Source of the DNA: Marsupella aquatica | Taxonomy: Eukaryota > Plantae > Marchantiophyta | NCBI GenBank assembly: GCA_973895155.1 | Contig: OZ316896.1 | Location: 21,519,643 to 21,583,642, forward strand | DNA: 64,000 nt | Direction: 5' to 3' | Shown: in pieces, positions 5,001 to 41,100 of the stretch | How positions within the stretch are numbered: the stretch's first letter is position 1 | How the letters are laid out: every line of letters begins with the position of its first letter | Translations under genes and position numbers: made by a program | The notes under the pieces: model-generated | What the model was told of the DNA's origin: nothing | Seen by the model: only the letters and a program-made list of their open reading frames with translations | Databases searched by the model: none

Positions 5001-6201
5001 AAACATTTATTTCAATTATTATAATATGGAATCCGGCCCAAACTCTCCAAGTGTGCTTACCAACTTGAAAGGAAGGAACAGAATCTAGCCGCCAAATGCA
5101 TTGGAGAATTGTTTTTGTCACTATTCGATCGTGTGAAGTGGAGTGCCCAAACAGGGCCTATTATCTTGGAGGAGGAGCTATTTACCATAGGCTACTAGGG
5201 AGTAAGTGGTGTGCGTGCAGATTATAAACATTATAATACACAATCCCTACCTTTTCCCTCATGGTTTGTGCACTTTTGGATGTAACTCATTTTGCTTGTT
5301 GGATTCAGATCTGCATTTTCCTAGTCATGAGATCTAGTATCATATACAATTTCAATGTATAAATTAAAGTATTATGGTACATGGATATAACTGTATCTAT
5401 TTGCTTCACCTTATTGTGTAAGAAGCCTCAACTCTAGTTATGCTACTAACACTAATTGTGTGGCACAGGGGAATTCGAATACCTCTCTAACTAGTCTAAA
5501 ACTTTGGTTTTTAGCAATAATTGCCAATGATTCAAGAAACTAAAGTGGGGATGGAGCTCCACATTGTTTATGAAGCCAAGATGGATTTGGCAAAGCTTGG
5601 ATGGACTTGCTCCCAAGATTAAATTTGAGTCAATCATATAACTTTGTTTACATTTTTGACTGAAATGTGACCTGTAAATGGTCTTCTTATTGTTTGTAGA
5701 CTGTTTCAGTTATGTTACCCAACCGGTCTCCTCGGTAGCATGGCTATTTGACGACCTTAAACATGAAAGACGTGAGGACATCATGCCATTACTAAGGAAC
5801 ACTGGTTTTCAGTTAACCCATATAAAAATTTCCAATTGTAGAGTGAAATCATGATTCACCATATTTGACCATCTCTGTGTTCATTGAAAATGGAGTGAAT
5901 GATCTAAAAAAAGAGTCAAACTTTGTCACACAATGTATTGGACATGAGAGACCATGCTGGAAATTTGTCAGCTTAAATTAGGATCCAGAAGTCCTTCAAA
6001 TAAATCAAACTATCCGCCAAATTCAAAGGTAAGGTTTGTGTGTCAAAATAGTTATCCTTTGTTGAATGTAATGTGCCATTTTTATGGAAAAGAAACCCCT
6101 AGATACTTCTCTACTTGCATTTTCTTTAAAGAGGTAAATTAAATTCAAAAGTGTAACATTTCAATGCATGCTAAAATAAATGAAAAACCTCCTCATATGA
6201 C

Positions 6202-7108
6202 AAAGCTGATTTTTTCCTCGCTACTCGGTAACCAACACTCCCAAAGCTGACAGGGCCCAATGTGATAAACTAAATCTATGTTGCTTTACATGCTATAACA
6301 AAGCTGATTTTTGCCTCCCTATTCGGTAACCAACACTCCCGAAGCTGATAGGGCCCAATGTGATCAACTAGATCTATGTTGCTTTACATGCTATAACAAA
6401 GCTGATTTTTGCCTCCCTATTCGGTAACCAACACTCCCGAAGCTGACAGGGCCCAATGTGATCAACTAGATCTATGTTGCTCTATACATGCTATAACAAA
6501 GCTGATTTTCCCCTCCCTATTCGGTAACCAACACTCCCGAAGCTGATAGACCCCAATGTGATAAACTAAATCTATGTTGCTGTACATGTTATAACAAAGC
6601 TGATTTTTGCCTCCCTATTCGGTAACCAACACTCCCGAAGCTGACAGGGCCCAATGAGATCAACTAGATCTATGTTGCTCTATACATGCTATAACAAAGC
6701 TGATTTTCCCCTCCCTATTCGGTAACCAACACTCCCGAAGCTGATAGACCCCAATGTGATAAACTAAATCTATGTTGCTCTACATGTTGTAACAAAGCTG
6801 ATTTTTGCCTCCCTATTCGGTAACCAACACTTCCGAAGCTGACAGGGCCCAATGTGATCAACTAGATCTATGTTGCTTTACATGCTATAACAAAGCTGAT
6901 TTTTGCCTCCCTATTCGGTAACCAACACTCGCGAAGCTGACAGGGCCCAATGTGATCAACTAGATCTATGTTGCTCTATACATGCTATAACAAAGCTGAT
7001 TTTCCCCTCCCTATTCGGTAACCAACACTCCCGAAGCTGACAGACCCCAATGTGATAAACTAAATCTATGTTGCTCTACATGTTATAACAAAGCTGATTT
7101 TTGCCTCC
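6202..7108. repeat. 98-100-bp tandem repeat array, left part (9 full units plus a truncated one)
   Basis: Unit aaagctgatttttgcctccctattcggtaaccaacactcccgaagctgacagggcccaatgtgatcaactagatctatgttgctttacatgctataac starts at 6202, 6300, 6398, 6498, 6596, 6696, 6794, 6892, 6992 and 7090; the last unit is cut by the transposon. Confidence 0.97.
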
Positions 7109-7290
7109 ATCACTATATTCATTAAAAGTGGAATTATAAAGAAGATTTGGAAATTTGGGCATTTAAAAACACACTTTTAGGCATAAGAATTGTAAATTTG
7201 AAGGATGAAAAATGAAAATTTAAGCATCATGAATTATAAATTTGGGGCAAAAAAATAGACATTTGGGCAAAGAAAATATTAATTTGGATA
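7109..7290 (+). repeat. Left TIR and AT-rich subterminal region with degenerate ~20-bp periodic repeats
   Basis: 25-bp TIR followed by recurring aaattt(g/a)...aaaa motifs at roughly 20-bp spacing. Confidence 0.7.
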
Positions 7291-7693
7291 ATATTAAAAA
7301 ACATTTGGGTGATAAAAAGTGTTCATTTGGTTGAAAATAGATAGAACGTGTGTAATAACACATAAGCTTGGATAGCATCTATACTCAAAACATCTAGCTT
7401 GGATAGGATCATTATCTAAGCAACAATGAAATGCTAGACAAGTTAAATATCTTATATTCAAACTAGGATGACATCCAAGTAACTTAGAACTGCCATCATT
7501 TTCTAGAAATATATGTACTAAGACAAAAATAACAATTTTTATCAAAAAGTCCATTCAATAACTAAGAAAGATCATAGAGTATTTGATTGCAAGCCTTGTT
7601 CTCTCACTTACTTTAGACAAATGCATGGAAATTAACTTGACCCTCCTACCTACAAGTCATTACATAGTGGACACTTGTGACCACTCTATCACT

Positions 7694-10600
7694 CTACTCA
7701 TCAATACCTTCCATGTAAGTTTTGAGAGTTTTCAAAACATTCTTGGGAATTGTCAAACCTCTATCCATAATATTTTGTTCTTTGGCACCTGACTTAAACC
7801 CATACATTGCAGAATTTGCAAATTGCCAACTTTGAGTGATAGTGTTAAACCCAGGATCTAGCTCCCAAGTCTTAGTGGTCTGAAAGCAACGTTCGTATCG
7901 AACATCATCCTTTGCATCATGCTTACCATGTTTAGGCCTCCACCATTGCACTTGGAACATAGGAGCACACCGCTTAGGAATGCTACTTAGGTGAATGCTC
8001 TTAGAAAACCTTGAAGAAGACCCTTCACTAAATTGCAAATCTAGTGAAGAAACCTCATGGTTTGGATCCACACCACCCAAAGCTCGAACTAACCAGAAAC
8101 GCCCTTTGCCATTTTTTTGCTCCCATTCATCCTCTGGACGTAAAAACACAAAGTGACCCTCTTGAATATCTTGTAGGGGAATCCAACGTGCAAGTTCTCG
8201 CTCTTCTTGTGCACCAACGAAGGGTGCAGCTTGACCTTCCATCTCTTCCATGTACTCATTTTGAAGGTCCATCATCTCTGAATTTTGAGTAGGTTCACTT
8301 GAAGGTTGAGAGGTCCCCAAAATCACCTTGTAACCTGTGCCATGGTTAGTCTTTGGCCAGAAATCAGTTGTCAATGACAATTGTCTTTCTCCCTCCCCTT
8401 CTATTGTAATTGCCTCAGAGAGTGCCATAACAAGCCTCTCCCAATATTTCACCAAAGGAAATCTCTCGCAGTATGCTGCAGAGGTCTCATCCTTGCAACT
8501 TTTCCTCAAGAAATCAATGTAACGATTAAGGAATGGGATGATTTCCTCGACTTTCTTTTGTACCTCCCCCGATATAGGTTTTGCAAATGGTTGGCCCTCC
8601 GGTAAAATGAGCGTGTTTGTGATGAGATCAGTTCTCCAAATTGACCTCCCTGTTGCTGGAAGCCAAGGTTGTTTGACATGTGCTTTATATTGATACACTG
8701 GCACATTATCCCTCATGGAGAATAGAAATGCCACTGGTTTTGAGTGACCTTCAATCTCTTTCACTTGGAAAGCCTTCAAATAGTGCTTGTAAGATGCAAC
8801 CTCCTGAATCAATCGTGGTACGGGATGGATGCTTTCACACTCCCAAACCTCAGCCATCAACGCAAGGAGGGTAGCAACCTCTTTGTACCTGACCTGTTTG
8901 GATACTCGAGAAAATAGTGCATCCACATCCTCATGGGTGTGGCCAACCATGAGGAATGACATTTGCATAGTTTCAAACACCCCCTGCTAACAAGCTCGCT
9001 GCAAAATGCCATCACATATTGATTTTTATTATATTTTCCTGAATTGTTCATCTGCAGTGTTAGGTGCCTTGGTAAGGGCTTGAAAGAGCTTGTAGTCTCA
9101 GGATCAACTCTAGAACCAGCATCTGTTGTGCTGGTTTTTTGGCTCTCCTGACCGTCATCAAGGCCTTGAAACTTGAGAATTGAAACATTTTTGGGTTCCA
9201 AGTAACCCGCTTGAAATGCTTCAAAGTCCAAAAGAGACTGAAATATTGGCCTAGTTGCATTCCAATTGAAAGCTTCAAGCATGTCTCCCGTTTTGTCTCC
9301 AGTGTAATCCTCCAAATCTCGAAGGCATTTGGCCAAAGATGTCACAGTGAAGTCTGCATCTCCAGGCCAAAGGCCAGTCAAACTAAAGTGTGCATACACT
9401 CCTGGATCCCTTCCATGGGTTAACATCCCAGTAAGGGCAATGGCCAGAGGTTGACCACTACCAGAGAGAGATTTTGGAGTGGGGACCAATCTGGGGATCC
9501 AAGTCTTGGCTTGGTCCATCTTATCATGAATAATGCAAAGATAGTTTTGAGGATCCTTCTTTGCAAGAACCCTATGAGCATAGTAAACATATCTCCTTGA
9601 CATTTGTTCACGAAGATGTCGTGCTCTTTTCTCTTCAATCTCTGCACGCTCTTTTTTTCTCTTCTCCCGCATCAATTGATCTTTGAACTCAGTGCAAAAT
9701 GTGCACTTGGCAAATGCACTGCCCTTGTGAAAGTCAAAATTATCAAAAGAATTTTTCCAGATGTTGTACATGGTAACTTCAGTAACCTTAGCATAGCCGT
9801 CCAATTCCATCTTTGCAAATACCTCTTGAAAAATCTCCTTCTTAGTGAAACATGATGGGAGTCGATATTCGACAGTATCGGTGCCGTTGGACCCACCATA
9901 GGGAAGATGTGGCATTGGTTCTCCATTTTGGATTAAAATGGACTCCAACAATGCACGAGCATGCAAGGTGCTTGATCGTGTCTTATGTTGCCCTTGATTT
10001 CCATGGAAACCAATTGTGCACCCAGCTTCGTACTGATTTTTGCAATCATCACACTATTCATTAAAAGTGTATTTTATTTTGTTCACTTTTAGGCCTCTAA
10101 AGATTCACTTTTTGATCTCTAAATGTACACTTTTTAAACCCAAAAGGTACACTAAGGTACAATACTCTACACCTAACTGATCAATTGTAAACTTGAGGGG
10201 GCAAAAATGATCTTGACTATAAGGAGTCTCATCCTAGTTCATTTACAAAGGATGAACATGGTGGTATATTTGATGGCCATCAACTTAATTTCTTGCCCAA
10301 TTGTACACTTTTTGAGGGCCAAATGTATACTTTCTATTGCCCAAGTGTTCATAAATTGAATAATAATTCACTTTTAATGAATAGATTGATAATCATAATA
10401 CTTTGCCGTACTAAACCCATGCATTTTTATGAACGCATCCTTACAAACCACACGTCCCTTTAGAACAAAAAATCCTTTTCTCTTGACTTGGTCTTCTCTA
10501 CACCCAAAAAGATTGAAGATATGACTTGTTTTGTTGTCACTTGACATTCCATGAAATTCCCTCCTTATTGCCTCCAAGTCCTCTCAAGTTGGCATGTTCA

Positions 10601-11778
10601 AGCAACACTTTAACCTGCAACAACCTTCTCTTTGGATGGAATCAATGGACTCCTCGGTGATTTTCAAAAGTGCCCTTGATTGCAAATGTTTTTTTTTTCT
10701 CCTCCAGATCCACTTTGGTCCTTCTAATGAAATTATAAGGTCTTTTTGGAGGTTTCCCATCACCATCCAAATCCGGGTCGCTCTCATTTCGACCCGATTC
10801 TATCCACACATGTGAACCTTTCTCAAGGATATCCCCGAGAAACATTTGAGATGAAATCAACAACAAAGATTTGATTTCCCACCTCACCAAACCTGGAGTA
10901 CCAGCACAGATATTTGGAAATAATGCGGGATCGTTGATATTCACAACAGCTACACCCACATGCTCTGGACCAAGAAGTTCATCATCAACAGCACCTGCTT
11001 CAAAAGGAACTGTGATAACCCCTATCGCAACCTTACGACAACGAGAAACATCATACAAGTCAACTTCCTCTGCCATCCAGTTGGAACGCATTGTAAAATC
11101 TTTCAATGGAAGATCCTTAAACAGGTTTGCACCCGGGTTTGCACCAACAAACATGCCAGAACCTCGAATAGAGCCTTTTCTTGAAACATCAGCAACATCC
11201 CACATTACCCAAGTCTGCATTGCCTCTTGCACTGTGTCAGCTCCAGGATGTGGATACGGTAGTTTTCTATTTCCCTGAACAACCTCTGATATTTGTATAC
11301 TGACACGGCCAACACCGAGTCGTTCACTATGACAAGTGTCCATTGGATTGGTATTGAAGACAACTCCTTTTGATACAAGTTCATCTAAAATGAACATCTC
11401 AACCTCCTCTCCTTCAGCAAGGTTGCCTCCTTTACCACCAACATCCATTTCGGAACATCCTTCATCCCCGTCCACTGGAGTAGGAACACCATCCACAGCG
11501 GTTCTTTTCGGCAATGTTGAAGACCTCAAATATGCCAAGGAAGAATCCCAGATCACACACGAGTCAACTGCATCACCTAGGCTCGATGATGTTTTGGATG
11601 GAAATGGTAGTGGACAAGATGTTTCAAGACACCTCTCGATAAGGACCCCAATTCGATTTTTCCCAAGACAAATATTGTGTATAGTGTCTTTGGGATCAAC
11701 CTTTTGGATGGTCCCAATTGCCACTTCAAAACCATCAATTATCAATGAAACTTCATCCCCTCGCATAAATTTACTCAT
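7694..11778 (-). pseudogene. Sola-like DDD transposase with three N-terminal En/Spm TNP1-like repeats (~1245 aa reconstructed)
   Basis: ORFs 10642-11778, 10584-10787, 10374-10577, 8857-9966 and 7694-8980 join into one protein. Motifs: CCRLKCC, VCKDAFIKMHGFS, HGNQG, CTFC, IIHDKMDQ, LQMNNSGKYNKN (expected LQMDNxxxxNKN), SFLMVGHTHEDVDALFS. Lesions: frameshift in the T-run 10689-10698, TGA at 10584-10586, MITE at 10048-10390, frameshift in the C-run 8980-8984, apparent catalytic D to N change. Confidence 0.85.
10048..10390. mobile_element. 343-bp non-autonomous element (MITE) of the same TIR family, nested in the transposase gene
   Basis: TIRs ATCACACTATTCATTAAAAGTG and ATCAATCTATTCATTAAAAGTG (20/22). 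TSD AATC at 10044-10047 and 10391-10394. Removal restores the frame AKYYD-CKNQYEAGCTIGFHGNQG...LHARALL. Subterminal tacacttttt-type repeats are present. Confidence 0.93.
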
Positions 11779-11956
11779 GGTAGCGAAAGGATCTCTGCAT
11801 CCAAAAACATTTAAAAATTGTTCAGCTGATGTGCATACTGATAAGCACTACTCTAGATATTACAATATTAGATCTAAACATTTGAATTCTATTTAAAGGA
11901 AAAAAATATTTGGGAGTTTATGTGTATTGGCTTTACACAACAGGATTCTAAGGTCA

Positions 11957-12387
11957 GGGACGCTCTTGGAGCGAGGCAAGGTTGCGACGCTCTAGGGGCG
12001 AGGCGATTGAGGGACGCTCTAGGGGCGAGGCGATGGAGGGTCGCTCTAGGGGTGAGGCAATGGAGGGTCGCTCTAGGGGCGAGGAGATGGAGGGTCGCTC
12101 TAGAGGCGAGGCGATGGAGGGACGCTCTAGGGGCAAGGTGAATGAGGGTCGCTCTAGGGGCGAGGCGATGGAGAGACACTCTAGGGGCAAGGTGAATGAG
12201 GGCCACTCTAGGGGCTAGGCGATGGAGGGTCGCTCTAGGGGCGAGGCGGTTGTGGGACGCTCTGATGGCGAGAAAATGGAGAGCGGATGCCCTTGGAGAA
12301 AAGAAAGGGCAGGATGCTCCTGATGAAAGGTAAGTGTGTGACGCTCTTGGAGCGAGGCAAGGGCATGACGCTCTTGGAGCGAGGCAA
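11957..12387. repeat. 27-bp minisatellite built on an imperfect palindrome, upstream of the transposase ATG (probable 5' intron)
   Basis: Unit gggtcgctctaggggcgaggcgatgga, about 11-12 copies at 11957-12270 plus two more near 12340 and 12367. A minus-strand acceptor tgcag lies just upstream of ATG 11778. Confidence 0.92.
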
Positions 12388-13109
12388 CGGGAGAGCAAGA
12401 AAAGATGAGCACAATCCTGGAGAAGCAAGAATTGTGAAGGAAAAGAGAAAATATGGAAATGAATAAATCAGGGGAATGATTAAGCTGAATTAGACCATTG
12501 AAGTGTGTAGACGTGTGGGTAGACGAGTGTGTCGTTAGGAACCCTACATTATCTAGGGCTTAGTTAGGTCCATATATTAAGATAAAGCTAGGGCCAAATA
12601 TTTGGTGGATATCATAGAGAAGAAATTAAGAGAATGGTAGATGAAGTAATACCTCTCTTAAGGACTATAGAAGACGTGTCGCCAACCAAGGACACCAAAA
12701 CTAATGCAATATACTTGAAACAGGACTTTCCTTGCACGAACTCTTGTAACCATAAATGTCCAAGTCAGTCGAATCAGTCACCGAACAGAAGCAAGATAGA
12801 CAAGGGCCGAAGGGCGAGACCGAGAGTGAGCAATGACCAGAAACGCACGCGCCATACAAAAGAGAGAAATGATTGGAACTGTAGAGCTTTATACCATTTG
12901 TGAGCAAGCTTTAGCCAAGTTTGTCCTGAAGGGGTTCACAACATCGAGAGGCCGAAAGTCTGATTACTCTGATCGGCATTCTGTGGACACCCGTACGACC
13001 GTGCATCATTTTTCAAAATCTATGGATACCCGTACAGCTAGGTCATTATGAGGGTTGCGAGTTCACAGGCGCGTGGAAGGGAGCAAGTGGCTGGGTTGCG
13101 TAAGGTCGG

Positions 13110-13160
13110 GTACGATCGGCCGTGGCGTACGATCGGCCGTGGCGTAGGATCGGCCGTGGC
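13110..13160. repeat. 17-bp tandem repeat (x3) in the divergent promoter region of the transposon
   Basis: gtacgatcggccgtggc repeated three times, one with a variant base. Confidence 0.9.
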
Positions 13161-13447
13161 AGTGAGGGTATAGGAAGGCAAAAGGCAAAGACATTACCTC
13201 ATTTGCCTCATTGTCTTCTTGCATCCATCTCCTCCTTCATTGTCTTCTTGCCTGGCTGCCCTGGTTTCCCTCCTCCCTCTTGCCTCGCTCATAGTAGATT
13301 TTCTTGCCTCGCTCTGTTGATTTTTCCTTGCTCATAGTAGATTTGTTTCCTTGCTCTGTAGCCTCGCTCCGTGGTGTGGTCTAGCTATAGGTGTTCTTGT
13401 ATACTAGGCTGCCACGTGTCATCTAAACGTTTGTGAGGCATTTTTCA

Positions 13448-16400
13448 ATGGCTACTTCCTCTAGTTCTGATGATTCTACTAGCACTTCTAGTTCTGGGTA
13501 GTCCCTAAACTTTGATTCTAGTAAAATCTTTGAGTATGATTCTCAAGACACTTTACTAAAGATGTCGGTGGAATCCACTTTGGCCGCCTCAAGGGGATTT
13601 CATATCACAGTTCCACGTAAGTATGATTCAACAATTGATGCAAGTTAGTCTTTGAAGGGTCACTCTTAGAGCGACCTTATCTTGCCTAAGATCTGTCGTT
13701 GTTATTGGTTGGATGTTGATTTAAGTTTTCCTAGGGTCGCTCCAGGAGCGACCCAACTTTGTTGTTGGTTGGACGTTGATTTAAGTTTTCCTAGGGTCGC
13801 TCCACGAGCGACCCAACTTTGTTGTTGGTTGGACCTTGATTTAAGTTTTCCTAGGGTCGCTCTTGGAGCGACCCAACTTATTTGTCGGTTGGACCTTGAT
13901 TTAAGTTTTCCTAGGGTCGCTCCAGGAGCGACCCAAATTTGTTGTTGGTTGGACCTTGATTTAAGTTTTCCTAGGGTCGCTCTAGGGGCGAGGCAACACA
14001 GAAGATCTCTTGCTTTAATGTTTGTCGTTTCAATTTGTTTTTCTAGGAGAACAACTTGGATCCCTAGAGTTAAATATTATGGCCGAGGATGTCAAGGACT
14101 TTATTTTCCCTGGACAAGATAAGGCAGGATTTTTGTGGGCACTTGAAGTAGGGATCATGGAGAATGACTTGTCGATGATTTGTATCAAGGCAATCACTGC
14201 TGAGACAATGAACGACAAGAAGATAGTTGCGTTGGGCCCTGTGGTCCTTGTAAATTGCAGTGATAACCGCAATGTTACAATCATTATTGAATCCAGAGAA
14301 AGATCTCAGTGGATGAGACTTTACTTGCCAATCAAGATGTACTCGTCAATTATCAACGTGGAGTGGATAGCACGCTCGGAGGCTAGTATTTGTTCAATGG
14401 GATTTCTTCCAGATGGGTTCACTGCAGAGGATCTTCTTGAGAGGCATGGAAGATTCAAATTGAGTGGGGTTGATGTTGTCTTTGGATTCCTCTCTGTGAA
14501 GCGGTACATGCATGATCATCCGGACCTTATAGATCTTCCTAACACATGGGTTGTCCAGAGGATGATTGAAACAGCACGCTTTTCATATGAGCAAGCAATT
14601 GATAAGAGTTTTATTTTCTCTGATGAGTTTGACGAAGATGCTTGCATGAAGTGGATTTCAACTCAAAAGAAGAAGGAAGAAAAGCATCGAGGTAAGGCGA
14701 AGATGAAGATGAAGGCCAAAGAAATGACGTCGGCTGAAACACAGAAGAAGAGAAAACAAAGAGAGCCAAGGAGTGAAGGAAGTACTAGAGGAAAAAAGGC
14801 GGCGTTGAAGAAGAAAGATAAGGACTCCGACAAGAAGCCCAAGAAGAAGGCCAAGATTGGAAAATCAAAGCCCGTGTCAGCGTCAAAAGCAAGGTTGGTC
14901 TTGGATCCGGAGGATGATACATGCCCAACAGATGCACCAGAGGAACGAGATGTATTGGAGGGGCAGAAAGCTTTGCGGAACATCGAGCAATACTACACTT
15001 TTGGAATCAGGGAGGTTTTTGAAATCCCGGTTAAAAGTATTCTTCCGCCTACTGCAGTTTTTGTGTATCGGATGTTCAACCAGGCTCATGCCTTAGAGAT
15101 AGCAAAATCAATGATGAAAAACCCTGGCCAGGAACCACATGTTGCAGATTTGATTCCATTTCTAGAGCGCACTAAGCAGTTGTTACATTTTGACAATACC
15201 GCATGCGATCGGAAGCAATTTTTGTTTGGTGTTAAGAAGCAAGAGATACAATTTCTTGCAATCAGTGGGCAACATTCTGCAAAGGCTGCACAATGGATTC
15301 AAGGGTGGGCAGACAAGGATGCCAAGCTAACTGATCTTGCTAGCAAACTCCAATATCTGAAAGCGAGGATCTTATCAGACCTCACTCCAAGGGCAATTTT
15401 GGTCGAGCACTCGAGCCTTTCAAATGCAGTAAATCAGACCATGCAGTTTAAGTCTTGTTTTCTAGAGACAGTTGTTCATGCGAGAAGGCAATTTGATGAA
15501 TGTGGGAAACCACCGCGTCCAGGAATTGGAACAAACCAAAGTACAGACAACCAGAGATACCAGGTAAACATTTTCATTAGTTGGAACTGTAGTTTAATTT
15601 TGCCTCGCTCTTAGAGCGACCCAAATGAAATTGAATGATGAATACAATGATTGCCCCAACCATTTTCATATGGCTTTGTCATTTTCTTCGCCTCGCTCTA
15701 GGGGCGAGGCAGAGAAGTTGAAGTTTCTAAGTTTAAACATCTAACATGTTTTTTGGTGGATGAATGTAAATGCAGGATTGGTTTGCCCTCGCAAAGATAA
15801 CAATGGGAAAGTCGAGCTTGAAAGCCATTTTTTGGTTGCTCTTTGCTGAGGATAAGCTTTTCCATTTGTGGCAAACTGTTTGTTGGGATTGGTTGGCAGG
15901 GAAGCTCCCTGGCGGGGCAGGAGAGTATGGTGGGCCGTGGCCACTAAAGCTGGTCACGCCAACTCTTTTTAGATGTTTTGAAGGGGAGATCAGTTCTAAG
16001 GATATCATTGATATATTGACCGCGGTTTATGAGAAGAAAGCACTTCTCAAGAAAGATGCCTCCAACAAGATGGATCTGGTGTCAATGCCAAATATGGCTC
16101 ATACCATCAAGGTAATGACTAAATTGAAGCAAGTCATTGTTGAGTACTTTGTTGAGAAGCACAAGGAGAAGTTTCCCGGGGGGACATCGTGGGCTTCGGT
16201 GGTCAACATCATGCCGGCCTTGGGATCTCAACTTGAGCTGACAAAATTGCGAAGAGCAGCTGGGGAGGTCTACCTTAGCAGTTTATTAAGGAAGAACATT
16301 GTGAAAGAGGCTTTCCCTCAAAGTCTAATGGTGAGATTAGACGGGTTGTACTACAAACAATTTGGTGGAGTTGGGCGCACACGAACAGAGCCTTTCTTGA

Positions 16401-19400
16401 CGTTCTTCAGTGAGAATCTAATGAAGACAACCACGCCAGACTTATTGGAAGAGGCGACGCCAATGTGTCCACTTGCAATTGTTGATTTTAGTAGGGCACG
16501 ACAACATGAATGGACAGATTCGGAAATTTTTGTATTGCTCCAATATATTGTGGAGTTGCCAAGGAATACAACCATTGTAGTTGTCATGACTACTCATCCA
16601 GGGCCACTTCCAGCCAACATCTTAAGTGCCCTAAGGAAATTAGGACATGAAAAGCATTTGGCCATCCATGTTGAATACGGGAGTTATGATCGGGAAGATC
16701 GCCCAAATCCGCAGGGCTTAATTTTTACAGGAGCGATTGAGCAGGTCATTTTTGCTGGAATTACAGGTGAAGACAATTTTGATTGGAATCAATTGTTTAA
16801 GCCAGAGTTCAATTCAAAATTTAGTTTTCACCCCGATGTTGACTGTGATTTCAATATTGAAGTGAAGGCTGACAAGCAAGAGAAAAGCAAGGGAAAAGAG
16901 AATGAGACAGAGGAGCAGTCTCCCGCATTTGATATGGCAGATTTATTGCGGCAAGCTCCAATGTTTGAGATGGTCGAAAGTCGAGGAGGATTTGTCAATC
17001 CGCATGCCAAGCCCTGACACATGCTCAAAAATATTATTGAATGTTTTTCCGGTGAGGGGGAGACTGTCCTCGATTTTTTTTCAGGAGGGCAGGTTTTGAA
17101 GGTGGCCTTGTTGGCATACCGAGATTGTTTTGTCTATTCAGACACTTTGCAAGAACACCATTTCACCCAAGCATATGCAAGGGTTTTGTGCAACAGGATT
17201 CCCTCCCTTATGAAAGAGCGAATGGGAGTACATGGTCCTAGGAGAGCTCATCTAAGTGTTCTTTGCGGGCCTATGGACAACCCCCAACCGGGCCCTCAGC
17301 GAGTTGACCTTGAGGATGGTGAGTTGCAGCATGATGATGGAGGTTCAAGTCCTATGGTAGAGGAGGATTTTGGCGGAAATTGGGATGCTCGAGCAACAGA
17401 AATGGTTGGCATTACTACCTACGGTGTTGAAGGGCTACCTCAACTCGACATAGTGATGTCGGGTCGCCCTGAGAGCGACCCTCCATCAAATCCTCTCAAC
17501 CCTGAAGTATCAAAATTGCATCCCGAGAGACCGCAGGTATCGTGCACATTGGATGCAGGTTGGCAGAATATTGGGGCCACTACACCCACCACGGACCTAC
17601 AAGTTGGTATTGCAGAAGCGATTGAAGACAACCTTCCACTTGGAGAGACAACAAATGTTGAAGCTGAAGAGGCAGGTGCTTCAACTTGTTCCGAGTCTCC
17701 TCAATTATGTTCGTCAGGGAATAAATTGGTCTTCACAAGGATGTCAAGCGGAAGCCCCATAATATTACGCTTGTCTCAAAAGTCTGGATCTGAGATAGGT
17801 AGAACAAGATATATGAAGACAGTCCGTCATGCAACTCATTTCATTTGGAGAAATGGACCTAAAGTTGGATTGAAAGAAACGTTGGAGGATGCGCCTAAGT
17901 TAATGGTCAAACCTCATTACATAATAGACAAATTGAGATTGAGTCCAGTGTTTGCGCCGGCAACGTTGGTGGAGCAGCTTCCTGTTGGCGTCAATTTTGA
18001 TATCCAAAGTGATCTAGGTGATAAAATGATAGATGAATATGGGTCATTTAGTAGTGGAGGTTAATATTATGGTTTAGTTCTTCTATTTTTCACAATAATC
18101 TAAAATATTATGTTTGGAAATCATATATGGACAGACCAAAGTTTTGTCATAGCATCTCTTCCATCGAAGGATATTATTGGTCTACCTTCAGCAAGCGGTA
18201 CCCTGGTCCAAGACAAAGCATTTGAGCAAGGTACTTCTACATTGATATATCAAAATGCTTTGACATTCAAAAATGATATGTTTGTTTTCCCCATTAGGTC
18301 GGGTCGATCCAGGTTCGACCCTAAGTTCTTCTTTTATATCTTTTAGATATAATTTTGATTCATTTGGATCTTTGCAGATTTCACTCCTAAATTGCACTCT
18401 GATATAAGAAGAAAACTCTTGATTTTGGACCTGAACAAAATTTGTTGGGATTGCGTCAAAACAAAAAGCTCGGGACCGTTAAGATCTACAACAACTGTGC
18501 GGGGTGTGCATTGGGGGAGACGGGGTGGATTCAATTTCATGTACGTGGAAAGGCCAGGGTTGCACCAATTTTTGGAGGTGGCTTTCAAAGGTTTTGATGT
18601 CGCATTGTGGACTTGTGCGGGGAGGCCAAGAACTAATGAAATGATGAATTTGATTTTCAAAGAAGAGGAGCGGAGGCAATTTAAATTTGTTTTCACACAA
18701 GAAGATGCTTTTGATACTGGCATAAAAAGACCGGACGTAGCAGATGGGAAAGGAAATATTATGTTGAAGGATTTGCTTGTGGTGTGGAGTCGTTTTGGAG
18801 ACAAGTATGATGATACAAACACTCTACTTATTGATGACTCTCCAGTGAAGGCTTTTGCAAATCCACAGTATAGTGGTTTGTTCCCAACTCCCTTCTCACA
18901 CGTTGCTGAGAGTGACACTTTTCTACCAGAGATACTTTGGCCATTCCTTAGAAAATTGTGGAAGGCTTATGACATCCGACAATATATATCTGTCAACAAT
19001 CCACTTTGGTCATTTGTTAATATAAATGATGACCGTGAAAGTAATGCTGCAATCACTTTCCCATAAGTGGGGAAGTAAGATTTGGCGTTCCAAGATTGAG
19101 TATACCATCTTGGATGTCACTGGAGATGAGATATGTTGGGAAGTGAGGGATATGGTACAATCCTACCCTACATTTGAGAACCTGACCGAAGATGATATGA
19201 AAGATGTGGTCAACAACTGTTTGGGCGAGTCTTATGCAGGTCCCTTCAGAGAAAATCCTCGCCGATTTGTCTGGGAAGTTCTAAAGACTAGGGATCTCAC
19301 CTCTAAGTTTAAAAACCGTTATCCCAAAGACACTTGCACTCGTGACAGACTATATGACCCAAATGGAGAGCGACTCACTTGTTCAAATCAGTCATGTAGA

Positions 19401-19442
19401 CATATTCATGGAGGCATAGAATTTGAAATTTTAGATGATTAA
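13448..19442 (+). pseudogene. Transposon cargo gene, 5 exons (13448-13616, 14047-15563, 15776-18059, 18135-18230, 18378-19442), ~1700 aa: Lys-rich region, ParB/Srx-like, N4/N6 DNA methyltransferase-like and FCP1/NIF phosphatase-like domains
   Basis: All four GT-AG introns join in phase (1,0,1,1). ParB-like motifs: EIPVKSI..VYRMFN..AKSMMKNPG..FLAISGQHSAKAA. MTase-like motifs: NPHAKP*HMLKNIIECFSGEGETVLDFFSGG..ALLAYRDC. NIF-like motifs: LLILDLN, ERPGLHQFL, VALWTCA, KDL, NTLLIDDSP. Lesions: TAG at 13499-13501, TGA at 17015-17017, +1 frameshift at ~19026-19063. Confidence 0.78.
13705..13995. repeat. 60-bp tandem repeat (~5 copies) in intron 1 of the cargo gene, each copy carrying the 21-bp palindrome
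   Basis: Unit ttggttggaccttgatttaagttttcctaGGGTCGCTCcagGAGCGACCCaactttgttg with an exact 60-bp period. Confidence 0.95.
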
Positions 19443-19729
19443 TCATTATGTTTGTGTACATTGTAGGACACAAGATTGGAGTCATGCAATCATTTTTCTA
19501 TTTCACAGGTCATAGAACTACTTTGGACTTTACACTAGCTTGACCATTGGAGTAGGATCGACATTATGGCTAGCCAACCTTGAATATATGTTATGATAAA
19601 TGAGATGATTAATCTCACTTTGAATTTAATCATGAGTTTTTACCAAATGATACATGTTTGTCACTTATCTATTTAATTTCAAATACAATTAATATTAATA
19701 ATTTCTGTATTATGATTAATTGATTAAAA

Positions 19730-19896
19730 TCAAATTTGGAGTGCAAAAGTGTAATTTTAAACCAAAAAGAGTGTATATTTAGTCTTGAAAAATTGTTTAT
19801 TTGGAGCAAAATTAATGGACTTTTTAGAGACAAGAATGTAAATTTGAGGATCACAATCTGGACTTTTAAATTTCCAGTTTTAATGAATACTGTGAT
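19730..19896 (-). repeat. Right subterminal region with degenerate ~20-bp periodic repeats and the right TIR
   Basis: Recurring aaaa(g/t)tgt..ttt motifs; TIR at 19872-19896. Confidence 0.7.
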
Positions 19897-20567
19897 CTCC
19901 CTATTGGGTAACCAACACTTCCGAAGCTGACAGGGCCCAATGTGATCAACTAGATCTATGTTGCTTTACATGCTATAACAAAGCTGATTTTTGCCTCCCT
20001 ATTCGGTAACCAACACTCGCGAAGCTGACAGGGCCCAATGTGATCAACTAGATCTATGTTGCTCTATACATGCTATAACAAAGCTGATTTTCCCCTCCCT
20101 ATTCGGTAACCAACACTCCCGAAGCTGACAGACCCCAATGTGATAAACTAAATCTATGTTGCTCTACATGTTATAACAAACAAGCTGATTTTTGCCTCCC
20201 TATTCGGTAACCAACACTCCCGAAGCTGACAGGGCCCAATGTGATCAACTAGATCTATGTTGCTCTACATGCTATAATAAAGCTGATTTTTGCCTCCCTA
20301 TTTGGTAACCAACACTCCCGAAGCTTACAGGGCCCAATGTGATAAACCAGATCTATGTTGCTCTACATGCTATAACAAAGTTGATTTTTGCCTCTCTATT
20401 CGGTAACCAAGACTCCCGAAGCTGACAGGGCCCAATGTGATCAACTAGATCTATGTTGCTCTACATGCTATAACAAAGCTGATTTTTGCCTCCCTATTTG
20501 GTAACCAACACTCCCGAAGCTTACAGGGCCCAATGCGATAAACTAGATCTATGTTGCTCTACATGCT
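19897..20567. repeat. 98-100-bp tandem repeat array, right part (~7 units)
   Basis: Same unit as 6202-7108, resuming at ctccctatt immediately after the right TIR. Confidence 0.97.
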
Positions 20568-38155: not shown

Positions 38156-41100
38156 ATGGCGACGTTGCTGATGAGACCGGGGGATGGTGGGAGTGGGGAC
38201 AAGAAGCGCCGAGCGCGGAAGGGCAAGAATGCGCAGAAAAAGCAGCCGCAACGAGGGCTGGGAGTGGCGCAGCTGGAGAAGCTGCGTCTACAAGAGCAGA
38301 GCCTCCTCTGCCCGACTCCGCCGTCGTATACTTTGCGCCTCTCCGCAACGGATTCGGATCACCACATGGCCCGGTGCGACACCGATGCTTTGTCGCAGAC
38401 TGTCCTCTCGTTGACCACTTCGAATGTGCATGGCCAAGCAGGCGGAGGGGGCTCCACCAGCAGCGTGGTGCGTGGTGCGGAAGGGGGCACCTTGTCGCGC
38501 CTAAGTTCCTTGAATGGACACTCCGCCGCCCAGAGCTGCTTGTCTCCACATCTAGCTCATGATATGAGCAAGTGCAACGTCGCTGAAGCCTTTCATGCTG
38601 CTGCCAAGGTTGCCGTGGCATCCAGGTCCTTAGCATGTCTGAGTCAGACCTCCAAATTCTCGTCCGTCAATGCTTCGTTCTTCTCGAATATGTTGACCGC
38701 CACTCAACTGCAGATACTTGAAAGCCAGGCTCAGGCTCAGCAAAAAGTGGCGGAAGAATGGAGGACAGCTGCTGCGACTGGGGTCGTAGAGCACTCTGGA
38801 AATCCTGCTCCCGCGTTCGTCTACCCTTCGGGCACCAATCACCTCAAAGAAGCTCCAGCAAATCATGTCAACAATGAAGACCTTAAGCTCCACCCGCTGT
38901 TCAAAGATCATGTACAATCCAGCGCCCTCTTAACTTCCGCTGATTTGCACTGCCTTGAATCACTGATCTGATCAGACGAGTCCCTTGTTCTAAGACCGCA
39001 TCGAGTCCATTTATCTTGTGGTTGTTCTAATACTTTTCTATGCACGCTGCTGTTCTCGACAATCATCTTCAATTGAAGTGTCTAGCCACGGCAGCTGGTT
39101 CAAACCAATTGCGTGCTCTTCTCTTCATGATCAATTGCGAATATTGATCTGGTCCGTTGTTCTAATTAGGATATTAGTCAGTCTTCTTTTGGTCAAAATC
39201 TCGTCAGCGTGCCAGTAAGTGAATGTCTTCACCAACTTATTTGTTGAATCATGAGGATTGGGCACACACCACGGAAGTACAACGCACTCGTAATATATAT
39301 CGTATTGCATCTGGTTTAGGTCGTCGCACCCACAAACATCGTGAGAACGAACTCAGCAAAGGAGCTCTCTTCTTTCCAAAACTATGCAAGTCAACAAGCA
39401 TGGCCACCGGTAGAGAAGGTAAGATCCGAATTCTCCTGTAGGCACAGAAATCACCGGAATCTGATGAGTTTGTCGAGTCAGACCTTGTCGATTCTTTTAC
39501 GCCAACCCTGCTCTTTGGTCGTCCGTGGGAGTCATATCAGTCAAATGGATGCTCGTCTCCGGGGATACCGTCAGGCTGCTTCTAGATTGGATGCCAAGAT
39601 CATATATCCAATTTGTTTGGAAGAATTTTCCATTGAATGCGTTTTAGGCAGAACATCCAGTGGGGTGGAAGACTGAAGAGGCTAGGCTTGCTCGTATGCC
39701 GTCTGGACGCCAAACACCTAGGCAGAAATTTCATGCCTTGCCCAGTCCTCGAGTTCATGACTTGGGAACTGAGATTGATTACCGTAGCGTGAGTACAGCG
39801 TTCTTGTGACTCATTTGTGTGACACGGTTGTACTCATTGTGAGTGGATTGTTCAGAGTTTTTAATATAGACTGCTTTAGATAAAGGCTGCAGAGCGATTT
39901 ATACGCGTCTTCTCAAGTCGTTTCCCCTTTCATCGTATAGCGTCAAGATTCTGACTCTACTGGCAATTTGGTACATGAATGGTACGGCTGGACGGTGGGT
40001 AGGTAGCGGGAAGGAAACGGCCATGGCTTGCTCTGCAAGAGAGTTCGAGGCACGGTTGTTACGCGCAGGCTTTAGACCTAAACGCTCCTTTCGAGGAAAC
40101 CGATGCTGCCTTCAGCGAACGCAGACCAGTCGGACGACCCAACCAAGTTCCTGAGTTTCGAGTCGGAACACACTACACAACCGGCATTGTTCGGTAATCA
40201 CGAATCACATCCTATTCCGTCTATTCCAATTTCTGCATGTTTGCCACGTCGCCGTCGCTCACTTAACAATAATTAATAAATCTAGCCATAAGTTTTCTGA
40301 GGAACCGTAACCTCCTGAATTCGGTGTGCAACGATAGTACTTACTATTGAATGATGGCCGATGTAGCACATCCATATATGATAATATTTAAAATCCGCGA
40401 TCAGGCCCACGAGATGCGCAGTAGGAGCAGTTTTGTAACTTCACCAGAGATATGATACTTGTTTAAAGATTGCCTGAAGATTGCCTACATTGATGTGGCC
40501 CTTTGACTCTCTAATCTCTAATTGATTGATTGATGTGCAGAACTGCGCTCGGTAATTCATCTCTTCCTCCCATTGCGAAGATCAAGGTGTGGTCGTCGGG
40601 GTCACACTGGCAAGACAATGAGAGTCCGTCGCATGTCACTGCGTATTTCCCTGAAATGGGGGTGTGCGCAGAGAATGCGGTAGGCTTCAGACAGTGCCCA
40701 AGCCAGTCTTCGATCAAAGATAGCTGCTCGAGCGTCACGGGTCCGAGCAGCTATTTCTCTCGTAATCGGCAGACTTCCCTCAAAGATCCTGACCACACCC
40801 CTTCCCCAGTCGTTGAGAAGGAATCAATTTGTAGTAATTTCCTCACCCTGGGCATATCGAGCTCGTCCTACCCGGATCGCAAGGGGTGGACCGAGCCTGA
40901 AGAAAGCATTCAGGACAACACCCCGACGAGCATCATGAACGATATCAACAGATTGAAGCAGCACGAGACGACCACCACAAGCGGGTGTTGTGAAGCTGAT
41001 AATCATTGTTCGCAGGTTCGGATTCCACAGGTTCGGATTTCCATCTGTACGCAGGTAAAGAGTTCTTGCTGCGCGCAGCTGGATTACAATTTCCTTTTCT

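Follow-up and report, generated by a model that had tools for sequence, protein, structure and literature searches.

Sola DNA transposons are mostly 2-9 kb long, with some exceeding 15 kb, possess terminal inverted repeats (TIRs) of 11-1124 bp, and occur in Physcomitrella (PMC10741241), for which Sola1 in particular is listed (PMC9033089). Two-gene Sola2-Fanzor elements have also been described (PMC3627910). Here, we report on a Sola-like transposon in the liverwort Marsupella aquatica, located at positions 7109-19896 of a stretch of 64,000 nucleotides (NCBI GenBank assembly GCA_973895155.1, contig OZ316896.1, positions 21,519,643-21,583,642 of the forward strand), which is referred to as the window and whose first letter is position 1 throughout this paper. 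Beside a transposase gene, the element contains amplified palindromic sites and a second, larger gene, whose product, here termed the accessory protein, has predicted ParB-like, methylase-like and phosphatase-like domains. We lean towards the reading that this protein may be a palindrome-binding regulator of its own element, largely by analogy with regulators encoded by other mobile elements.

Among such regulators, the targets of VANC form tandem repeats that vary between families, and demethylation was shown for VANC (PMC5735166). BisD of ICEclc, an integrative and conjugative element (ICE), is a ParB-type clamp that loads on parS-like sites carried by the ICE that encodes it, whose promoters it activates, and the arginine of its GxxR motif is required (PMC12409273). 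A Dam family fused to a ParB helix-turn-helix region in chlorophytes and chytrids, and ParB loci of phages, have been described as well, and are not the element considered here (PMC4738411).

The element and its transposase

Contigs of four public runs (X1-X4; two studies, two organism labels) were compared with the element; one of these runs may be the window's own source, and the contig support is not fully independent. The element spans 12,788 bp, starts with ATCAC, finishes with GTGAT, and is flanked on both sides by CTCC as a 4-bp target-site duplication. An earlier note on this DNA, made from its letters alone, had given the coordinates, the length and a 4-bp duplication correctly; the 25-bp TIRs that it named are real as inverted ends and are imperfect, 22 of 25 bases being alike, or 27 of 32 over the longer pairing. 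The features concerned are the following:

7105-7108, no strand: left target-site duplication CTCC, at the empty-site joint of the X1 and X2 contigs
7109-7140, plus strand: left TIR (ATCAC...), followed by 21-22-bp subterminal repeats up to about 7290
7697-11778, minus strand: broken DUF7869 (Sola-like) transposase gene, PF25273 at E 9e-22 and 2.6e-13
10044-10394, no strand: nested miniature inverted-repeat transposable element (MITE) with its duplication; the MITE proper is at 10048-10390, 343 bp
19865-19896, minus strand: right TIR, which pairs with the left TIR
19897-19900, no strand: right target-site duplication CTCC, which matches the left one

The insertion splits a 98-bp satellite: the array runs up to 7108 and continues from 19897 with its register kept. 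The empty satellite site is present in contigs as a joint from 7104 to 19897, at which four letters (X1) or three letters (X2) fit either side. Contigs of the four runs reach all 30 bins of the element, and in three of them (X1, X3 and X4) a contig starts exactly at 7109, as is expected at the end of a repeated element. The MITE, which lies inside the transposase gene, has the same ends as the element (22/25) and its own AATC duplication, and therefore supports the rule of ends and duplication; the transposase gene without the MITE is represented by a joint from 10045 to 10393 with four shared letters in contigs of X1, X3 and X4. The 22-bp subterminal repeats are also present in the MITE. The element is almost certainly a real transposon insertion, and it has moved by cut-and-paste transposition with a 4-bp stagger.

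The interrupted satellite array occupies 6196-7108 and 19897-20567 of the window and consists of about 16 copies, in which 98- and 100-bp units alternate. In all four runs, the MITE family is plentiful and diverse and includes several forms with internal deletions.

The transposase gene, read from 11778 to 7697, faces away from the larger, intron-containing gene on the plus strand, as had been claimed. Its product aligns with residues 5-1230 of P0070, an intact Calypogeia fissa protein of 1,230 amino acids, at 42-67% identity, and the other named homologs are from Riccia sorocarpa. The N-terminus of P0070 is composed of three mutually related repeats, one of which matches PF03017 (En/Spm TNP1 family), followed by a CxxC/His region. 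The motifs HDKMDQ (9528), QMNNS (9054; QMDNS in homologs) and GHTHEDVD (8944) are found in the window, and among 73 mostly partial homologs HDKMD is present in 9, QMDNS in 33 and GHTHED(V/I)D in 55. These motifs, together with the CTCC and AATC duplications, support the proposal of a Sola-like DDD-type transposase that makes 4-bp duplications. A triad of three aspartates (DDD) is probably present in the family, and we infer from sequence which aspartates form it. At the second of these positions the window copy has Asn, whereas all contigs compared, in 4/4 runs, have an Asp codon. Because of this Asn, two frameshifts (near 10690 and 8990), a stop (10584-10586) and the MITE insertion, the transposase copy in the window, judged by its letters, is dead.

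With the transposase as query, nothing significant was obtained among PDB sequences and no matches in the metagenome scan, and the Pfam label of its domain is DUF7869 only. The DUF7869 motifs are presumably like those of Sola1 (DN..GxNKN, GHT...D..F), and Sola-like is the right label.

The accessory gene and the palindromic sites

The second gene, on the plus strand, and the domains predicted for its product are as follows:

13448-19442, plus strand: broken accessory gene of about 1,710 codons, in five predicted exons separated by four GT-AG introns that preserve the frame
14079-14540, plus strand: N-terminal domain with a weak PH/PTB-like fold match, then a Lys/Arg-rich stretch
14990-15450, plus strand: predicted ParB/sulfiredoxin-like domain, with an SGQHS motif at 15264
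16400-17210, plus strand: predicted beta-class amino-methyltransferase-like domain, with AIVDFS at 16475, LDFFSGG at 17069 and a stop codon at 17015
18410-18990, plus strand: NIF/FCP1-like HAD phosphatase domain, with LDLNKI at 18425 and IDDS at 18830; PF03031 at E 3.4e-16

The predicted exons lie at 13448-13616, 14047-15563, 15776-18059, 18135-18230 and 18378-19442; the first is a prediction only, and the junction of exons 2 and 3 is spanned by the Calypogeia proteins P0054 and P0056. In the window copy, codons 18 and 976 are stops, and the frame shifts near 19054; contigs of X1 and X2 are without this frameshift. Distant accessory homologs were found at six metagenome loci (L001-L006). The stretch that follows the N-terminal domain contains 30 K/R per 70 residues. 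A PH/PTB-like identity was rejected for the N-terminal domain itself, the best Z of 5.2 being below the tool's noise level.

Exon 2 was modelled with AlphaFold from 12 sequences (mean predicted local distance difference test, pLDDT, 69.8). The leading Foldseek rows were all ParB, Noc or sulfiredoxin (E 6e-3 to 0.1, probability 0.93-1.0), and the model aligned with PadC at Z 8.4 (root-mean-square deviation, rmsd, 3.0; 98 aligned) and with KorB at Z 8.3. That the accessory protein has a ParB/sulfiredoxin fold is a model-based prediction of moderate strength. The exon-2 profile gave nothing significant against PDB sequences.

The methylase fold is read from the model of a homolog, P0086, which is 46% identical to exon 3 (mean pLDDT 48, with 70-89 across most of the core). 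This model matched MboIIA at E 6e-9, with 76 rows at E <= 0.001, and CcrM at Z 15.1 (rmsd 4.0, 208 aligned), and its catalytic strand precedes the motif that binds S-adenosylmethionine (SAM), which is the beta-class motif order. PF01555 matched at E 0.013 in the window gene and 2.6e-5 in P0086. The catalytic motif (D/N/S)PP(Y/F/W) is absent from the window gene, which reads AIVDFS. The strand, which was assigned as motif IV from the model, was found in 10 of 13 methylase homologs, where it reads hhhD(F/L) and never PPY, and L001 and L005 are also without PPY. The predicted methylase fold is likely inactive.

The NIF domain scores 59.8 bits against a Pfam cut-off of 21.8, is also present in L005 and P0208, and has UBLCP1 as its nearest solved relative (E 1.5e-8). 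The textbook catalytic motif of FCP1/SCP phosphatases is DxDx(T/V). It is replaced by DLNKI in the window, DLNGI in L005 and DVEGL in P0208, with the first Asp and the DD motif retained. As read from sequence, all three accessory domains stray from textbook motifs (GQHS, hhhD(F/L) without PPY, and DLN), and since these changes are common to the family they are not decay of the window copy. Searches of PHROGs and NCBIfam yielded weak methylase matches only and no ParB-methylase fusion family. The ParB, methyltransferase and phosphatase domains put forward in the earlier note are borne out, the first two as predicted folds and the third by Pfam; its "DNA-modification system" is overstated, PPY being missing in every homolog in which the strand was found.

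Palindromic sites were located in three places around and inside this gene:

11950-12390, no strand: 27-bp tandem array with trailing copies, between both genes, 10 palindromic sites
13650-13995, no strand: 60-bp tandem array in intron 1, 6 palindromic sites, GGGTCGCTC-NNN-GAGCGACCC
15600-15712, no strand: two palindromic sites in the intron immediately downstream of the ParB exon, the same position as in L001, L002, L003, L005 and L006

With at most two mismatches, the palindrome TCGCTC-NNN-GAGCGA occurs 19 times in the element and 0 times in the other 51,212 bp of the window, and shuffled versions of the element held 0.3 on average and never more than 2, so the amplified element-specific sites that had been claimed are real; at three mismatches the counts are 24 inside and 10 outside. 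Ten of the 19 are intergenic, six lie in intron 1, two in the intron after the ParB exon and one in exon 3, which makes 18/19 non-coding. At the same two-mismatch threshold, none was found in the transposase gene, at the element ends or in the MITE. The MITE has moved without palindromes, and they are therefore not needed in cis for jumping. The 22-bp repeat reaches 3.3-14.6 per kb at the ends and in the MITE versus 0.2-0.9 elsewhere, with few sites, and appears to be a likelier transposase site than the palindrome.

The distant loci have palindromes of their own: TTCCTCTCG-NN-CGAGAGGAA in L001, L002 and L004, TTCCAGTCG-NN-CGACTGGAA in L003, and TTCCACTCG-NN-CGAGTGGA in L005 and, less exactly, in L006. 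The intron after the ParB exon holds two to four of them in 5/5 distant loci that cover this stretch (L004 does not cover it), and further palindromes lie upstream of the accessory gene where covered. A position that is kept while the sequence is lineage-specific is as expected for a co-evolving protein and operator.

Two side observations concern these sites. At L001 (2218-2341) and L002 (1777-1896), the first intron palindrome centres a near-perfect hairpin of 120 bp, which could yield small RNAs or affect splicing. The observed/expected ratio of CpG is 0.38 in the transposase gene and 0.08-0.12 at the element ends; it reaches 0.79 in intron 1 and the intergenic region, both of which carry palindromes, against 0.58 outside. 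CpG-rich palindromes may explain part of this contrast.

The family and the proposed role of the accessory protein

The exon-2 profile gathered 142 clusters at 50% identity, one of which is spurious (P0227, DNase II). Nine of the ten long matches looked up are Riccia sorocarpa proteins, and several deep lineages are represented among them. In Riccia, the accessory homolog R1sor_021779 adjoins the DUF7869 transposase R1sor_021778 (one of nine loci), and in Calypogeia, CAM6091065 lies two accessions from the transposase piece CAM6091067, the contigs of both having equal length (one of six loci); the chance of such adjacency under a uniform null is 1.9% and 1.2%, respectively, values that are too small since transposons cluster. 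The main X1 contigs have a depth of 256-349, flat end to end over both genes, which fits the two-gene unit as the repeated unit. Compared with low-depth variant contigs of X1 (12-27), this would correspond to roughly 10-30 copies, depth being no copy number. The domain order ParB, helical, methylase-like, acidic and NIF is retained in L005 at about 22% identity. The ratio of nonsynonymous to synonymous substitution rates (dN/dS) is 0.010-0.072 for the ParB core in 6/10 pairs, the other four being saturated, and, from one pair, 0.12 for the methylase part. The family persists under selection, and it is very probably a stable two-gene family. In L005, a small open frame past the NIF exon (8494-8946) has no Pfam match, and no element end was recognised before the end of the contig.

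The preferred reading of the accessory protein is modelled on VANC and TnpA in other plant transposons and on BisD in a bacterial ICE. The transposase would grip the TIRs and the 22-bp subterminal repeats, which are shared with the MITE, and would cut and paste with a 4-bp stagger. The ParB-like and neighbouring helical regions would allow the accessory protein to load on the palindromes, both those of the shared promoter region and those within the introns of its own gene; we infer that the element would in this way recognise its own DNA. The methylase fold would likely bind DNA or SAM without methylating, and the NIF domain would likely act on a nuclear phosphoprotein, e.g., the RNA polymerase II tail. 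The outcome would probably be that the divergent promoters are switched on or that host silencing is held off, so that the element stays transcribable. The departures from the catalytic motifs of ParB CTPases and beta-class methylases lower the case that the protein is one of these, not the case that it works like one.

Several results weigh against this reading. Among the Foldseek rows of the exon-2 model, none reaches E <= 0.001, and a Z of 8.4 is close to the noise level. The GxxR arginine is missing in 85/85 homologs in which the box was located (149 examined), 63 of which read GQHS, the register of the box being taken from its strand-loop-helix position; a canonical CTP clamp is doubtful for the accessory protein because this arginine is missing and BisD needs it. 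No helix-turn-helix was identified in the accessory protein, the helical region being without a Pfam or PHROG match. The three N-terminal repeats of the transposase are a rival binder of the palindromes. Eight of nine Riccia and five of six Calypogeia cargo loci are not beside a listed transposase, the lists being incomplete, and a transposase was found at 0/6 metagenome loci, with at most about 700 bp upstream covered. In 4/4 runs at 85% likeness, depth over the transposase region exceeds that over the cargo region severalfold to tens of times, which suggests abundant relatives without cargo or with a more diverged one. One X2 contig jumps from 13126 to 19556, over the whole accessory gene, with other letters between; it is weak, having 22 letters on its short side, and is possibly a cargo-deleted derivative.

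The alternative that survives best, though we think it unlikely, is that the palindromes are sites for the three TNP1-like repeats of the transposase and that the second gene does another job, such as transposition-complex assembly or target choice. The match of one repeat to PF03017 of En/Spm speaks for it, as does the report that transposases alone can activate cognate copies (preprint 10.64898/2026.08.24.746577). The palindromes, however, are grouped upstream of and within the accessory gene and are missing from the transposase gene and the vicinity of the TIRs. In distant lineages, their place in the intron goes with the accessory gene, and it is another repeat, of 22 bp, that is concentrated at the ends and in the MITE.

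Somewhat less probable again is a free module, made up of the accessory gene and its palindromes, that, like Fanzor, travels with several transposon superfamilies, is loosely linked to this transposase and regulates mainly itself. Fanzor provides a precedent (PMC3627910), most Riccia and Calypogeia accessory homologs lack a listed DUF7869 neighbour, and the transposase region is the deeper one; against these stand the accessory homologs near DUF7869 transposases in two distant liverworts and the flat X1 depth over both genes. This alternative is partly compatible with a palindrome-binding regulator.

It is quite improbable that the accessory protein marks the DNA of the element as an active N4C/N6A methyltransferase whose catalytic motif is unusual. 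The model has a clear beta-class fold near MboIIA, CcrM, PvuII and the rotifer N4CMT, the FxGG motif and one Asp are retained, the dN/dS of 0.12 would fit, and N4C methylation is used by liverworts (10.1101/2021.02.12.428880). On the other side, PP(Y/F/W) follows the Asp in none of the ten homologs with the strand, nor in L001 or L005, whereas Marchantia DN4MT1 keeps TSPPY (10.1101/2021.02.12.428880). Finally, a single capture of a host gene by this copy, as in a Pack-type element, without a role for the transposon is hardly credible: both genes are broken in the window and the NIF domain has ordinary host relatives, but contigs are without several breaks of this copy (10689, 19054, 9048), and the case in which other copies lack the cargo, named in the earlier note as a one-off capture, is not upheld by about 140 clusters of fragmentary, multi-lineage homologs, a dN/dS of 0.01-0.12, the flat X1 depth over both genes and the adjacency to transposases in Riccia and Calypogeia.

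A bolder extension of the palindrome-binding reading, which we regard as rather unlikely, is that transposons of land plants have kept a prokaryote-derived ParB/parS-like protein-operator system across the deepest liverwort split. In it, the accessory protein would load on the palindromes specific to its family, spread along its element via a rebuilt nucleotide pocket and bring a pseudo-methylase and a polymerase-tail phosphatase to bear against host silencing. If true, plants would have, in addition to VANC and TnpA, a third and independent class of sequence-specific anti-silencing factor, together with a natural library of protein-palindrome pairs.

The self-maintenance of transposons under host silencing has been worked out for few plant families only. 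Liverworts offer a testable case with a genetic model, in which there is one accessory protein and one short palindrome, and the palindromes of relatives differ by single bases. If the accessory protein binds its cognate site and alters transcription or methylation, this would be a case of the ParB fold being used on DNA in a eukaryote, and the protein could supply sequence-specific chromatin tools. Otherwise, what is left is a large bryophyte repeat family with poor annotation; in Riccia and Calypogeia its genes are entered as hypothetical proteins, which swells the gene counts.

Elsewhere in the window, an open frame on the plus strand (38156-38968) has no Pfam match and contains the motif QRGLGVAQLE, which is presumably that of SPOROCYTELESS/NOZZLE-type repressors.

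Comparison with known systems

The core design, a transposase with a ParB-methyltransferase accessory gene, appears to be already known. A literature search on titles and abstract openings retrieved no description of this architecture in a bryophyte, nor of the liverwort lineage, the fused NIF domain or the conserved intron position of lineage-specific palindromes; the word "Sola" does not occur in PMC12885004. For Sola, the size, the plant occurrence and the second gene are not new. The earlier note had taken the "giant" size as distinctive and Sola as normally a single-gene element, which goes too far in view of Sola elements above 15 kb (PMC10741241) and of the known two-gene Sola2-Fanzor elements (PMC3627910).

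The element shares with the Sola superfamily the 4-bp duplication, short TIRs, a DDD-type transposase, a size within the range and the presence in bryophytes, and it differs in its second large gene and in motifs unlike those of Sola2. The Sola2-Fanzor1 elements of dictyostelids similarly have two genes, short imperfect TIRs and 4-bp duplications (PMC3627910). In contrast, the Sola2 signature DFAENY / SDG..QYKN / SHGK..CDG was not found here, where HDKMDQ / QMDNS / GHTHEDVD are present (compared by eye, PMC3627910 supplement S10). Sola2 targets AT-rich AWWT, whereas CTCC and AATC were used here, and the Sola2-Fanzor1 passenger is a TnpB-type protein, unlike the accessory protein (PMC3627910).

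Marchantia DN4MT1 was considered as a possible source or relative of the accessory gene; its catalytic motif differs from that of the accessory protein. VANDAL and VANC of Arabidopsis are alike in pairing a transposon-encoded accessory protein with tandem-amplified non-coding motifs that differ among related families, a likeness that extends here to the arrangement only. VANDAL is a Mutator-type element, unlike the Sola-like element described here. BisD of ICEclc and KorB of RK2 (PDB 8qa8) resemble the predicted system in being ParB-fold products of mobile elements that also bear the parS-like sites, and in acting on the promoters of these elements. Unlike these two, the accessory protein has a serine in place of the GxxR arginine, and is eukaryotic, encoded by an intron-bearing gene, and fused to methylase-like and phosphatase-like domains.

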